DNA of 32,000 nt from the NCBI GenBank assembly GCA_030606485.1, contig JAUWGH010000004.1, positions 360,001 through 392,000 of the forward strand, read 5' to 3'. How positions within the stretch are numbered: position 1 is the first letter of the stretch; the number at the start of each line of letters is the position of its first letter. A program made the position numbers and the translations under genes. This document shows positions 25,275 to 30,299 of the stretch, piece after piece. The DNA comes from Promethearchaeota archaeon. GTDB lineage: Archaea; Asgardarchaeota; Lokiarchaeia; Sigyniarchaeales; SOKP01. The notes beneath the pieces were generated by a model, which saw nothing but the letters and a program-made list of their open reading frames with translations, ran no database searches and was not told the DNA's origin.

Positions 25275-25552
25275 AAAATCTAATAATTTATTTTATTATT
25301 ATTATTTTATTGTTATGAAAAAAATAGGGAAAACCAAAAAAAATCGATCAGCAAAACTTTTTTGAGTTCGACTTCGATAATTTTTTATCTAATCTATGAA
25401 AAATTGTTAGAATAAATTTCTAATTTATATATAATCTTAATCATGATCATGAAATTATAAGGAATATGCTTTAAAATTACATTTATATCAATAACATTCA
25501 TTACACACCTGTACACCAAAACCCTATATTTTTTTTTTCCATTCCTTTCAAA

Positions 25553-25810
25553 TTAAATTATATTAAAGTAATGCAGACCGTAATCTGGACCACATACTAT
25601 CAAAAGAATACCTGCAAAGATAAGAAATTTTGCTCCATTCATTTTAAAATAATTTTTACCTAATAAACAAACTATTCCGAAAACTCCCAGTATTAAACCT
25701 AACATGGAGCCAAATGCACGCACAAAATTCAACAGATCTCCAAATATATTGGGCAATTCATTAAAAAAAACTTCTAATAAATCAGGGACTAGTAAAATTT
25801 GACAATCCAT
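25553..25810 (-). CDS. Small two-TM hypothetical protein
   Basis: ATG with AAGGA upstream; two Gly-rich hydrophobic helices. Confidence 0.65.
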   Translation of the reverse strand: MDCQILLVPDLLEVFFNELPNIFGDLLNFVRAFGSMLGLILGVFGIVCLLGKNYFKMNGAKFLIFAGILLIVCGPDYGLHYFNII

Positions 25811-26187
25811 ATTTTTTTTACATCCTTATCTTAATTTTTCGATTTTAATAATCACGGATGCAACAATCTCTGATATTTTAATAATAAAGATTCAATATTA
25901 TACATTTTATCTTTAGGATTCAATAAAACCGTGAAATATTTAACTTTTTATGAATAATAAAAAATTTTAATCTAGGTTTTTCCTTTAAATAGAATTGTTT
26001 TATTGAGATACTAAAAATAGGAAAGTTGATAGAAAATGTTTAATAATATTTCTGAAATGCATAAAAACTTTATAAGCGGGGAAGGAGTAAAAGAAAAGTT
26101 ATTTTTTATTCAAAAGGTTTTTGATGAGACTTTTAAAAAAATTTGTCGAGTGTTAAATTCGTATTCAATTAAAGAAAATTAAGAGAC

Positions 26188-29100
26188 ATGTCCCAATTAA
26201 GAGAACAAACTCAAGATAATGAGTCAGAAGAAGATACAAAAGAAGATTTAAGGGAGGATTCTAAAGAAGATTTAAATGAGGATTCTAAAGAAGATTTAAA
26301 TGAGGATTCTAAAGAAGATTTAGATGAGGATTCTAAAGAAGATTTAGATGAGGATTCTAAAGAAGATTTAGATGAGGAATTAAAAGAGGATTCAAATGAA
26401 GATTTAGATGAGGAATTAAAAGAGGATTCAAATGAAGATTTAGATGAAGTCCAGCCATTTGAACCTGATCACAGTGATGTAAGAGTTTTTGACCCTAATC
26501 TCGGTGATGTAAGAGTAAATATTGAACCGAGCCTTTCAGATTTAGGCAGCTTGGATCCCGATACAAGCGAGGGTAAGGAGTTAATTAACCTTGATCTCAG
26601 TGATGTAAGAGTAAATATTGAGCCAAGCCTTTCAGATTTAGGCAGTTTGGATCCCGATACCAAAGAGGGAATATCAACGGAGCCAATTGACCTTGATCTC
26701 GGTGATGCAAGATTAAATATTGATCCGAGCCTTTCAGATTTGGGTAGTTTGGATCCTGATACCAAAGAGGGAATATCAATAGAGCAAATTGACCTTGATC
26801 TCTGTGATGCAAGATTAAATATTGATATAAGCCTTTCAGATTTGGGTAGTTTGGATCCTGATACCAAAGAGGGAATATCAACAGAGCCAATTGACCTTGA
26901 TCTCAGTGATGCAAGATTAAATATTGATCCAAGCCTTTCAGATTTAGGCAGCTTAGATCCCGAAACTAATGAGGGTAAGGAGTTAATTGACCTTGATCTC
27001 GGTGATGCAAGAGTAAATATTGAGCCGAACCTTTCAGATTTAGGCAGTTTGGATCCCGAAACCAAAGAGGGAATATCAACAGAGCCAATTGAACTTGATC
27101 ATTCAGATATAAATCCATATATTGATGACAATGAAGGAACGACTACCTCTCTTCTAATCGAACGGGATGAAGAAAGTAATCACATGTCAGAACTGAATGT
27201 TAGATTCTCGGATATGGATAGTGAATTAGCAAGCGAACTTCAAGGAGATTCAGATGTTCAAGATATAGCAAGAGATGAGTTATCTGGATTAGATGCAGAG
27301 TTACTGGAAATGGATGACATATCTTCAAGTGAATTTCGAGAAGTCCCAGTTATTCAAGACATGTTGGAAGATGAATTATCAGAAATAGATGGAGAATTAT
27401 CGTTAATAAAAGATATATCCTCAAGCGATTTTCAAGATAGTAAAATTACTCAAAATATAGTAAGAGAAGAAATAAAAGATGAATTAATGAAATTAGATAA
27501 TGAGTCATGGGATCTTAAAGATATGTTCTTAAATGAATTTATAGATCTCTCAGATACTCAATATAGCTTAGAAGAGGACTCTTTGGAAATTTCAAATGCT
27601 ATAGAACCTATGGCGACAGACATCACAAATGTGCATACAAGAACTCTTGGACAGGACTATATTGGAGAACCCCAGACAGAAAACTTATATGAAGAAGGGG
27701 ATGAAGATGAGATTAACTATGATTTAAGTATGGATAAAAGTAATCAAGAGGCATCAGAACAAGAATTATCGCTAATAGGAAAGGAAACTGGAGAAGAAAG
27801 TAAAGAAATAACGGCTATCACATCTTCTGCAACTTCCACAACCTCCACAGAGCAGAAAGAAAGCCAAGAAGATGCTAAAGAAGAGGAACAAGCATCGGAG
27901 CAAAAGGAAGAGAACGAAATGGAAATGGACTATAATAGAACTGGTTTTACTGACCAAACACTCAATTTAAAGCAGAGGTTGAATAGAGAATTTAGGAATT
28001 ATATTGATCAAAGAAAGAATTTGGATGAAAGGTTGAGGAGGGAATTTGGGAGTCAGGTTGAGGATAAAGAACAAGATATCCAAAAAGATGAACCAGAACA
28101 AGAACCATCGTTAAAAGGAAAGCAAAACGAAGAAGAAAGTAAAGAGATTACGGCTACCACATCTTCCACAACTTCCACAGAGCAGAAAGATAATCAAGAA
28201 GATGATAAAGAATCGGAACTGACTTCAGAGCGGAATGAAGAAAGCCGTAACAACACTGATATTAAAGATTCAGAAAAAGATTCGGAGAATTTAAATAAAG
28301 AAACAGAAGAAGAGGTAAAAATAGATGGAGAAGAATCAGAAGATTTGGAAGATCTTATTGATAAAGCTAAAGAAGAATTTAAGATTTTAAAAGATCCAAA
28401 ATTGAAAGAATTATTAAAAAAATATGATGGTATTGCCTATAGGGGCACGCAATTTACTAAGAAATTTATTAAATTTATTAAAGATCAAGATAATGATGCA
28501 CTAACTAAAGAAGAGAAGGATGATTTGGTTAAAATAATAAATAAATTTAATGAAAATAGAAATATAAATAATCTTGTTAAATATTACATCAAATACACTA
28601 ATCTTTCACAGCGGAAAATATTTAAAAAATTAAAAAATATGAATTTAAGAATAAAGAAAGGTGGATTAGCAAAGATGTGTCATAAGGTTTTAACACAGAA
28701 GGAATATGAAGAGAGGTTTACGGCAAATAAAGATTTGGTATCCGATGAACAACGAGAAGGCATAATAAAAGACGGTCGCTCCAAAAACCCTGACTCAATT
28801 CCAAAGATTGCAGAAAAATGGGGAGTAGCAAAATCTACTGCTAATAAAATAATAAAAGATGACTTGGGAGAAGAAGAATTTCACAAGAAATTTCCGTATT
28901 CTGAGTTATCCGATGAGCAACGAGAGGGCATAATAAAAGCCGGTCGTTCCGAGGACCCTGGCTCTTTTGACGATATTGCAGAAGAATTTGGAGTATCATT
29001 TTCTACTGCTAGAGATATAATAAAAAATGATTTGGAAAAAAAAGAATATAATAAGAAATTTTCGAAGCCTGAAGTATCCGATGAGCAACGAGAGGGCATA

Positions 29101-30048
29101 ATAAAAGCTGGTCGTTCCGAGGACCCCGGCTCTTTTGACGATATTGCAGAAGAATTTGGAGTATCATTTTCTACTGCTAGAGATATAATTAAAAATGATT
29201 TGGAAAAAAAAGAATATAATAAGAAATTTTCGAAGCCTAGGATATCCGATGAGCAACGAGAGGGCATAATAAAGGACGGTCGTTCCAAAGAATTTGATTC
29301 TATAAATAAGATTGCAGAAAAATGGGGAGTAGGATGGGGTACTGTTAAAGATATATTAGAAAATGATTTGGGAAAAAAAGAATTCGATAAAAAATTTCGT
29401 AATGATTTAGCACAATTAATAGGGTTTGAGAATCATAAATTAATTGAAAAAATAGCCACGCAAGATTTTGATGAGAAAAGAAAAAAGTCTCCAGATGTTC
29501 CAATACTCGTTTCAGAGCCCCCAATTTATACTAATAGTAATAAACGTTGCGATAATGTATTTAAAAATGATAAAAAATATCTACAAAAACTTCTTAAAGA
29601 TAAAATCGCAAAAGAGTTAAATATTGATCCTAAAGAATTAGACCACATTGAAGTTGTGCTTTTTGATTATACCGGTTGGTTACACAAAAGAAATATCATA
29701 GATAAGATTGAGAAATATCAGCATTCCAAAATTATGTTATTCATTGTCGGGACATATTTGCTTCCAAATTGGATTGCTCGAGTTAAGAAACTCCCTAAAG
29801 ATAAGAGGATTAAATATCCCGAAAACATCCGTATTATTAGTTTGGATCTTTTTGCCGATTTGTTAAATCTGAGTGATGATAATCGGAAGCAGCTTGAGGA
29901 AGTTATTAAATTAACTAGATTAAGAGATTTAGAAACCTTGAGAAGACTTAACGAACGAAATAATTATAAATTGCACCGCTTAAAAAAATCAAAAAATAGA
30001 AAAAAAGGAACCAAAAATGATTTAGATGCATTTTTGAAGAAAATTTAA
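26188..30048 (+). CDS. 1286-aa modular protein: acidic repeats, 4 tandem HTH modules, C-terminal PD-(D/E)XK-like domain
   Basis: Intact ORF with directly visible repeat arrays. HTH pattern S...IA..(W/F)GV..ST...II; C-terminal E / R-x-D / D-Y-T / KY motif series. Confidence 0.85.
26230..26445 (+). repeat. Coding 24-bp tandem repeat (EDSKEDLN/D x6) followed by a 36-bp variant ([12 protein letters not shown] x2)
   Basis: Consecutive gaggattctaaagaagattta(a/g)at units. Confidence 0.95.
26500..27099 (+). repeat. Six coding repeats of 96/102 bp (L[24 protein letters not shown]...-LD)
   Basis: Unit lengths 32,34,34,34,32,34 aa; invariant core LSDLGSLDP. Confidence 0.95.
28738..29406 (+). repeat. 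Four 168-bp (56-aa) tandem HTH repeats
   Basis: tccgatga(a/g)caacgaga(a/g)ggcataataaa recurs at 28741, 28909, 29077 and 29245. Confidence 0.95.
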
Positions 30049-30100
30049 AATCATCTCTACCGATAATTTTATTGATCTTAAAACCCAACTTAAAATAAAT

Positions 30101-30265
30101 GAATTAATTTTAGGAATAAGTAGAGATCCTTCTTTTGGACCGATGATCATGGTGGGCAGAGGTGGAATTTATGTAAATTTTATTAAAGATGTTGCATTTT
30201 CATTAACTTATAAGTTTTCAAGAGAAGATGTGAGAAAAAATGGTAAAAACAATATACTAAGCTAA
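30101..30265 (+). pseudogene. Fragment of an ADP-forming acyl-CoA synthetase (AcdB/ATP-grasp) gene
   Basis: Translates [35 protein letters not shown], matching the family motif E.IVG..RDP.FGPVIMFG.GGI.VE..KDV.F. No intact upstream part; an apparent +1 frameshift in the A-run at about 30235-30240 (restoring it gives EDVRKMVKTI). Confidence 0.75.
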
Positions 30266-30299
30266 ATTAATAAACAAGCATCCAAAAAAAATTATTGTT

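Follow-up and report, generated by a model that had tools for sequence, protein, structure and literature searches.

A candidate modular DNA-targeting endonuclease of Asgard archaea, built from a variable helix-turn-helix array and a divergent restriction-endonuclease-like domain

In a stretch of 32,000 nucleotides from the genome of a Promethearchaeota archaeon (GenBank assembly GCA_030606485.1, contig JAUWGH010000004.1, positions 360,001 to 392,000 of the forward strand; this whole stretch is referred to below as the window), one large open reading frame (ORF), P0001, encodes a protein that is considered here as a candidate DNA-targeting nuclease. The protein is composed, in this order, of an acidic, repetitive N-terminus (residues 1-720), a linker, four helix-turn-helix (HTH) modules and a C-terminal nuclease-like domain. 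Aspartate and glutamate make up 32% of the N-terminal 720 residues; in the C-terminal half they account for 19%, and lysine and arginine for 21%. The parts of the gene discussed first are listed here, with positions counted in the window and residues in the protein.

26188-30048, plus strand: P0001, ORF of 1286 residues; long ORFs of the same build are found in congeners
28735-28902, plus strand: HTH module 1, residues 850-905
28903-29070, plus strand: HTH module 2, residues 906-961, the module that was modelled
29071-29238, plus strand: HTH module 3, residues 962-1017, a recent duplicate of module 2 with 7 nucleotide differences in 168
29239-29406, plus strand: HTH module 4, residues 1018-1073
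29407-30045, plus strand: C-terminal domain, residues 1074-1286 (213 residues), PD-(D/E)XK-like fold

An earlier note on this DNA, made from its letters alone, had described four modules of 56 residues carrying an HTH pattern, a description with which profile searches and structure prediction agree. In Pfam, the array is matched by HTH_23 in three stretches at 44.5 bits (cut-off 24.6), and many further HTH families match as well. According to Tandem Repeats Finder, 28739-29397 contains 3.9 copies of a 168-nucleotide period (83% matches), and a shared motif at the start of the module occurs four times, at residues 852, 908, 964 and 1020 (nucleotides 28741, 28909, 29077 and 29245). A module model, built with AlphaFold2 (AF2) from an alignment of 70 modules from 30 proteins (alignment A2), has a mean predicted local distance difference test score (pLDDT) of 90 and helices at positions 4-15, 22-29, 33-43 and 46-53, i.e., a three-helix HTH followed by a fourth helix that links to the next unit. 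The Foldseek rows for this model are individually insignificant, the query having only 56 residues, and nearly all of them are HTH DNA-binding domains (AsnC/Lrp, sigma region 4, DeoR, GerE and IstA transposase); with the IstA transposase HTH the root-mean-square deviation is 1.2 Å over 41 columns. The modules thus combine a profile score above the cut-off, a three-helix fold and an exposed third helix. The NUMOD-type Pfam profile (I-HmuI_NUMOD-like) reaches 17.7 bits, below its cut-off of 27. From these data we infer that the array binds DNA via its HTH modules.

Over their first 54 codons modules 2 and 3 differ by exactly three changes, all of them synonymous (GCC/GCT, CCT/CCC and ATA/ATT), while the final two codons differ non-synonymously. 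The three changes are as the earlier note had reported them, and its suggestion that they reflect selection on the protein is retained only as a weak hint of purifying selection, since it comes from three events; with 20.6% of the sites synonymous, the probability that all three changes are synonymous is ~0.009. Contigs assembled from short metagenome reads break inside modules 2 and 3, and the copy number of this module type is for that reason taken from the source assembly only (G000; 13 contigs, 3.75 Mb). A different module number at this locus was considered and set aside: a few metagenome joints carry extra letters between the two sides, probably from paralogues, and none of the joints is clean.

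Both the number of modules and their recognition helices change among homologues, in line with what had been anticipated from the window alone; the recognition-helix strings quoted in the earlier note were found exactly as given. The module number ranges from 1 to 9 (1-7 among the representatives; 4, 4, 5, 5, 6 and 9 within the genus). Across the 70 aligned modules, the helix-3 positions that are buried (T35, V36, I39 and A40) are conserved. Entropy within the module peaks at position 33 and is likewise high at positions 34 and 37, such that the exposed positions of helix 3 are the most variable. Ratios of non-synonymous to synonymous substitution rates (dN/dS), determined pairwise by the Nei-Gojobori method for 17 non-redundant modules from the closest paralogues, were 0.29 for the helix 1 region, 0.38 for the helix-3 core and 0.41 for the exposed positions of helix 2. 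For the exposed positions of helix 3 (33, 34, 37, 38 and 41) the ratio was 1.95, a contrast that amounts to an indication and not a test, because the five codons were picked after the variability profile had been seen and the pairs are non-independent. It suggests, at that strength, that the presumed DNA-reading face of helix 3 is under diversifying change. In a tree of modules from close paralogues, module types are common to several proteins but occupy differing positions; in G002:C163, for instance, it is the next-to-last module of the paralogue with which the final module of the window protein groups. Among distant members, all modules of one protein cluster together, which therefore points to expansion within the array.

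The C-terminal domain was modelled with AF2 from 39 diverse sequences of this domain (alignment A1). The model has a pLDDT of 91, a predicted template modelling score of 0.89 and a core of the order alpha-beta-beta-beta-alpha-beta. Its elements are a helix at 2-36, short strands at ~44-48, a strand at 59-62, two short helices, a strand at 92-98, a helix at 103-113, strands at 118-124 and 150-154, and then helices. Exhaustive structural comparison (VIA-align) with 48,161 chains gave no strong match (best Z 5.8), and the top 50 chains (Z 4.2-5.8) are nearly all PD-(D/E)XK proteins. These neighbours include McrC, the Avs3 nuclease domain, Can2/Card1, PspGI, AF1548, Bse634I, EcoRII, SgrAI, Cfr10I, NgoMIV, R2 endonuclease, Bax1, NucS, NucC, BglII, BamHI and Tk-TIP26. 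The top Foldseek match is MspJI (E 0.013), the shape neighbours in the ESM Atlas include clusters of RE_Eco47II, Mrr_cat and PDDEXK_2, and neighbours found with a language model (Flu PA-X, PDDEXK_11, Tox-REase-7 and PDDEXK_3; scores 0.81-0.85) serve as leads only. In Pfam, neither the domain alone nor its 39 relatives matched any family; a profile search of PDB sequences with the relatives gave chance rows only, and PADLOC and NCBIfam gave generic HTH matches and none for this domain. The core fold of the PD-(D/E)XK superfamily is, in other words, found at moderate scores, and the domain is regarded as restriction-endonuclease-like because several weak lines agree and the neighbours are uniform, not because of any decisive single match. 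A homodimer prediction scored 0.00, a value obtained without controls that has no bearing on dimerisation either way. The dN/dS of the domain, determined between paralogues of the genus, is 0.25-0.35, which indicates purifying selection of moderate strength.

The earlier note had proposed such a fold with a variant D-x-T motif from the order of short motifs, and both the motifs and the fold hold up: RCD lies at 29545-29553 and DYT at 29665-29673, G..NH, SEPPI and IIDKIEKY are present as well, and the near-invariant positions include the D and D-x-T residues that it had singled out. The residues that would form an active site are encoded as follows.

29434-36: H1083
29515-17: E1110
29551-53: D1122
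29665-67: D1160
29671-73: T1162
29704-06: K1173
29713-21: K1176, Y1177 and Q1178

In alignment A1, Y1177 is the sole invariant residue, and G1079, H1083, E1110, D1122, D1160, K1173 and K1176 are each at least 90% conserved. D1122 stands one residue ahead of the model strand 59-62, i.e., at the start of the second core strand, where the superfamily has its PD, and position 1122 is Asp in 61 of the 67 aligned domains that lack an upstream membrane helix and cover it. D1160 and T1162 are on the third core strand, in the place where the superfamily usually has (D/E)xK, and in the aligned domains without an upstream membrane helix position 1160 is D in 53 and E in 9, an alternation like that of the acid in (D/E)xK. 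Of the canonical (D/E)-x-K motif the acid is thus present and the lysine is replaced by T or S. K1173 and K1176 lie on helix 103-113, the second core helix, which follows strand 3. Active variants of the PD-(D/E)XK site with the lysine relocated to the second core helix (Pa4535, PD-EXX-K) have been described, as have sites of the BamHI/BglII type without a motif lysine (Steczkiewicz et al. 2012, PMC3424549). By analogy, K1173 or K1176 may substitute for the missing motif lysine in the known PD-(D/E)XX-K arrangement.

A homologue search of 1.84 billion representatives yielded 95 relatives, which fall into two classes. In the cytoplasmic class, one or more HTH modules directly precede the C-terminal domain, and the set H-E-D-(D/E)-K is kept in 36 of 39 representatives. 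In the membrane-anchored class a membrane helix lies upstream of the domain and the set is kept in none of the 13 representatives; H is replaced by N or Y, E by N, D by N or H, D1160 by I, L or V, and K1173 by Y or I. Proteins of the latter class have a signal or anchor helix, an ectodomain of the Laminin_G_3/DUF2341, Ig-like or S8 peptidase type, and a membrane helix ~130 residues before the C-terminal domain. T1162, K1176 and Y1177 are likewise nearly invariant in the HTH-linked relatives and go with the others in the membrane branch. A set of residues that is kept jointly in the HTH branch and lost jointly in the membrane branch bears the usual mark of a catalytic set. Together with the module model and the variation among homologues, the picture is that of modules that model as HTH units, a C-terminal domain with the expected core and an array that varies, and in these structural and homologue comparisons the earlier note's reading stands.

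Members of the membrane branch, which are single-pass surface proteins, include P0023, P0034, P0040, P0054, P0055, P0058 and P0095, among others, and L009 (G010:C153). In L009, what appears to be a worn HTH unit stands between the membrane helix and the C-terminal domain (read by eye, in one sequence). A further paralogue, L050 (G000:C10:309611-311758, 715 residues), has the same C-terminal domain with its H-E-D-D-K signature intact, preceded by six repeats of ~66 residues that are unrelated to the HTH modules, have no Pfam match and follow the pattern G-F/Y-R-G-F ... KAAGF.P ... SFE.LVE.F...IYP. These repeats may be a second kind of nucleic-acid-reading array. L050 pairs the domain with another repeat, and the constant feature is therefore "repeat array plus C-terminal domain", with the array as the variable part.

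The N-terminal 720 residues (26188-28350) are encoded by tandem repeats of 12/24 and 102/198 nucleotides. Short-read contigs end in this acidic region; its length varies among paralogues, and it is absent from some of them (e.g., the copy in G003:C175).

The family was found almost wholly in one Asgard family: of the 68 genomes sampled from the family to which the organism belongs, 31 match the profile, as against 1 of the 233 taken from 29 further families in the phylum. Named relatives are from metagenome-assembled genomes of Lokiarchaeota, Promethearchaeota and Thorarchaeota. Sampled genomes hold 1-8 copies (2-8 within the genus), and both copy number and location differ between congeners. 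About 10.7 kb before the start of the window there is a relic of the C-terminal domain (G000:C2:349240-349401), an open frame of 77 residues that matches profile positions 158-210 (E 5e-8). Two distant homologues sit among ribosomal, tRNA-synthetase and metabolic genes. The genes around the ORF in the window are likewise archaeal housekeeping genes, encoding a class I tRNA synthetase, ScpB, SMC, archaeosine tRNA-guanine transglycosylase (TGT), Trm5/Taw2, a trpB2-like protein, PyrI and NFACT. Neither in the insertion described below nor beside the two distant homologues was an integrase, transposase or methyltransferase found, and the window as a whole also lacks a cognate DNA methyltransferase. 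Metagenomes that hold this DNA are from marine sediments and cold seeps (nine studies), and none of the listed sequencing runs containing the stretch is recorded as RNA. Literature searches found no description of this family, i.e., it is previously undescribed.

The gene is part of a ~5-kb segment that is absent from the same place in related genomes. The features of this segment are as follows.

25322-30291, no strand: inserted DNA, ~4.97 kb, missing from the same trpB2-pyrI-orf106-NFACT locus in three congeners
25307-25321, no strand: left copy of the 15-bp direct repeat TTATTGTTATGAAAA
30292-30306, no strand: right copy of the 15-bp direct repeat TTATTGTTATGAAAA, which includes the NFACT ATG (30300)
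25553-25810, minus strand: orf85 (P0096), 85 residues, two hydrophobic stretches of membrane length, no family match
30071-30256, plus strand: decayed fragments of two genes

In the congeners G001, G002 and G004, the order is trpB2-orf363-pyrI-orf106-NFACT with ~40 bp between orf106 and the NFACT gene, and in these empty sites TTATTGTTATGAAAA is present once, containing the NFACT start codon. Both insertion junctions are covered by metagenome contigs, without differences in one study and with few differences in another. The contents of the insert are orf85, the big gene and decayed pieces of two other genes. The small gene orf85 accompanies the big gene in G000, G002:C26 and G003:C467; it is present in multiple copies in the genus, and a paralogue of 91% identity (G000:C10:76034-76340) lies within a cluster of small membrane proteins. 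As for the decayed pieces, 30071-30230 (160 bp) is 85% identical to a stretch inside an ADP-forming acetyl-CoA synthetase-like gene (G000:C1:228045-228204), and 30229-30256 (28 bp) match the start of the DRTGG-type gene that adjoins it. The two fragments keep their native order, and the insert was therefore copied from a site at which the big gene lay within that locus.

The window site is filled in G000, probably also in G003, and paralogues occupy many other sites. That G003 appears to share the insertion may be set beside a ~235-bp decayed DRTGG remnant, longer than that of the window, which opens contig G003:C39 (L048) and lies directly before the NFACT gene. The alternative placement of the closest G003 copy beside an intact DRTGG-type gene (L047, G003:C64) was rejected because the identity jumps from ~85-90% to ~99% at the junction, as in a chimeric join, and because G003:C39 has the decayed fragment before NFACT.

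Paralogues in G002 and G003 adjoin seven other places that are unoccupied in G000. At one further site both flanks are available, from G002:C45 (L037, 7650-7960) and G002:C26 (L049, 1300-1900) compared with G000:C2:113965-114067. Here, the unit of orf85 and the big gene is flanked by a duplication of ~100 bp (~85% identity) that takes in the start codon of the adjoining gene and the sequence upstream of it; like that of the window, this insertion sits at a gene start. Both flanks are in hand at these two sites only. Similarity between copies ends within ~2 nucleotides of the stop codon, and the 5' boundary differs between copies. A search for terminal inverted repeats at the insertion ends gave as its best pair an AT-rich, unconvincing one of 22 nucleotides and 82% identity. 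Two other strain-specific segments were seen near copies of the gene. In G003 there is a 3-kb insertion (L046, G003:C175, 2750-5794, compared with G000:C10:58229-58231), which lies within a few kb of a further copy of the big gene. A truncated copy in G001 has next to it DNA specific to that genome; considered as a possible mobile element, this DNA consists of sugar-metabolism genes. The gene family is clearly volatile in place and number; the junctions can be explained just as well by rearrangement through microhomology as by movement driven by the protein.

The explanation that we favour, and to which we give an even chance on the sequence comparisons and models above, is that of a modular DNA-targeting endonuclease in which the HTH array is joined to a nuclease of the PD-(D/E)XX-K type. 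In such an enzyme the HTH modules would contact DNA via helix 3, each module reading a subsite, and specificity would shift by duplication, loss and reshuffling of modules and by substitutions in the recognition helix. D1122 and D1160, with E1110, would bind metal, and the place of the motif lysine would be taken by K1173 or K1176 from the helix that follows strand 3. The polyanionic N-terminus of 720 residues may mask or restrain DNA binding, which is a guess. As to biological role, the gene could be a selfish one that promotes its own spread or could encode a stand-alone defence nuclease.

A number of findings weigh against this explanation. The motif lysine is absent, position 1162 being T or S in ~95% of members and never K. 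No sequence method (Pfam, PDB profile, PADLOC or NCBIfam) ties the C-terminal domain to any nuclease family, and the structural scores (Z 5-5.8; Foldseek E > 0.01) are in the range that the tool calls common. Proteins without catalytic activity are known to share the fold, and in the surface proteins of the membrane branch a degenerate version of this domain forms the cytoplasmic tail. To these must be added the status of the helix-3 contrast as an indication and, as regards mobility, the unconvincing terminal repeats, the unequal lengths of the flanking duplications (15 bp and ~100 bp) and the presence in the insertion of pieces of unrelated genes, for which reason self-movement by the nuclease stays hypothetical.

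Part of this evidence would also suit a non-catalytic DNA-binding protein, whether it regulates transcription or acts in chromatin or as a tether. In such a protein the HTH array would bind DNA, and the nuclease fold, its catalytic chemistry lost, would serve for oligomerisation, ligand or metal binding, or additional contacts with DNA; we regard this main rival as somewhat unlikely. The threonine in place of the motif lysine, the reuse of a degenerate domain as a membrane-protein cytoplasmic tail, the presence of Tk-TIP26 among the structural neighbours and the homologues' lack of adjacent methyltransferase, defence or mobility genes are all in keeping with it, and the PD-(D/E)XK superfamily is known to include inactive homologues as well as proteins that only bind DNA (PMC3424549). 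It accounts poorly for the residues H, E, D, (D/E) and K, whose joint retention in the HTH class and joint loss in the membrane class are unexpected for a scaffold, as well as for the D/E alternation at the motif position and for a volatility in presence and copy number that would be unusual in a core regulator. Very improbable, in our judgment, is a metal-independent RNA-acting site formed by H1083, K1173/K1176 and Y1177, like the Tyr-His-Lys site of tRNA-splicing endonucleases, which have the same fold, with the array binding RNA or placing the enzyme on chromatin. An alternative Y/H/K site is documented in this fold (PMC3424549), Y1177 is the only invariant residue, and the H and K are at least 90% conserved; yet conservation is just as high for the acids in the canonical strand positions, which disappear along with H and K; nor does the list of structural neighbours contain tRNA-splicing endonucleases, an absence that does not amount to exclusion.

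If the protein is a modular DNA-targeting endonuclease, its role may be considered in two versions. In one, which we hold to be unlikely, it is a selfish, self-mobilising nuclease that cuts a site read by its HTH array, whereupon repair copies the gene with its flanks into the break, a free-standing route resembling homing or transposition. The gene is solitary among housekeeping genes, its site is polymorphic between filled and empty with the 15-bp direct repeat exactly at the NFACT start codon, the ~100-bp duplication at the second site again includes a gene start, at least seven further G002/G003 sites are empty in G000, similarity of the copies ends within ~2 nucleotides of the stop codon, and the insertion holds decayed pieces of a former neighbourhood. 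All this is set against the lack of terminal inverted repeats, flanking repeats of unequal length, a 5' boundary that varies, two sites only with both flanks known, and the fit of microhomology-mediated rearrangement unrelated to the protein to the same data; moreover, the paralogues differ by synonymous rates (dS) of 0.3-0.45, so most moves are old. The other version, distinctly unlikely, is a stand-alone defence nuclease with type IV-like or methylation-independent restriction, whose fast-evolving array would target the DNA of viruses or mobile elements. It draws on the best structural neighbours (among them MspJI, McrC, the Avs3 nuclease domain, Can2/Card1 and NucC), the missing cognate methyltransferase, the diversifying pattern in the recognition helix and a copy number that varies by strain, but PADLOC yields generic HTH matches only, the neighbours are housekeeping genes and not defence islands, and there is no indication of how host DNA would be spared. 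Highly doubtful is the most elaborate form, i.e., a code like that of transcription activator-like effectors (TALEs) or zinc fingers, with 3-5 hypervariable helix-3 residues per subsite and 1-9 units spelling out long targets, combined with cut-driven insertion of the gene into new intergenic positions near gene starts, along a homing or transposition route that is as yet undescribed and leaves direct repeats of variable length.

By presumed mode of action, the nearest known systems are restriction enzymes with a distinct reader, homing endonucleases with NUMOD-type modules and, in concept, TALE and zinc-finger arrays. FokI-type (type IIS) restriction enzymes have a separate DNA-recognition domain fused to a PD-(D/E)XK cleavage domain. 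The window protein resembles these and related restriction enzymes in having its presumed reader N-terminal and the PD-(D/E)XK-fold domain C-terminal, and MspJI, EcoRII, PspGI, Bse634I and SgrAI are among its structural matches. It differs from them in that small HTH units, near-identical to one another and 1-9 in number, make up the reader and carry hypervariable recognition helices, in the lack of a methyltransferase partner, of the motif lysine and of sequence similarity, and in the 720-residue acidic region in front. Lacking a methyltransferase, it does not qualify as a type II restriction-modification system. Homing endonucleases of the I-TevI and I-HmuI class carry NUMOD-type modular DNA-binding units beside a nuclease. 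Shared with these are small helical modules, variable in tandem number, next to a nuclease domain, as well as free-standing genes between housekeeping genes with polymorphic occupancy. However, the fold is GIY-YIG or HNH in the homing endonucleases and PD-(D/E)XK-like here, the sites occupied here are many and different instead of one cognate site, and the NUMOD-like match is below threshold.

The R2 non-long-terminal-repeat (non-LTR) retrotransposon protein, with Myb and zinc-finger units, also unites a PD-(D/E)XK-like endonuclease with helical units that bind DNA sequence-specifically, here in the protein of a mobile element, and its endonuclease is a structural neighbour of the C-terminal domain (Z 5.0-5.2); unlike R2, the present protein has no reverse transcriptase, and arrangement and lineage differ. 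The array is similar in concept to those of TALE and zinc-finger proteins, i.e., tandem small units with few variable DNA-facing positions and a length that changes by duplication, but the fold is unrelated, the nuclease fusion is natural here, and a code of one module per subsite is hypothetical. With Pa4535 (pdb 1y0k) the domain has in common acids at the canonical strand positions, a third motif position without Lys, and a conserved Lys on the second core helix, here at +13 from the acid (PMC3424549); it has no detectable sequence relation to Pa4535, BamHI or BglII, and the invariant H, Y and Q are extra. Aloposons, the giant-gene transposons of Heimdallarchaeia (PMC8813620), were compared as well and differ in every listed feature.

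The protein joins an HTH array, whose presumed reading surfaces change fast, to a new and divergent restriction-enzyme-like domain. Even if the protein should be non-catalytic, the family illustrates the diversification of an HTH array and the recycling of a nuclease fold, a degenerate copy of which has become a surface-protein tail. If the protein is an active nuclease, it would add to the restriction-endonuclease fold a new sequence family in which the lysine has been relocated and which is coupled to a DNA reader that changes fast between close strains, both in length and in reading residues. Recognition of DNA could then follow a simple repeat-based rule, with the HTH, the DNA-binding fold most common in prokaryotes, as its building block. 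For the Asgard archaea, of which the mobile elements are still poorly known, this would mean an additional class of genes that vary between strains and may be selfish or defensive.

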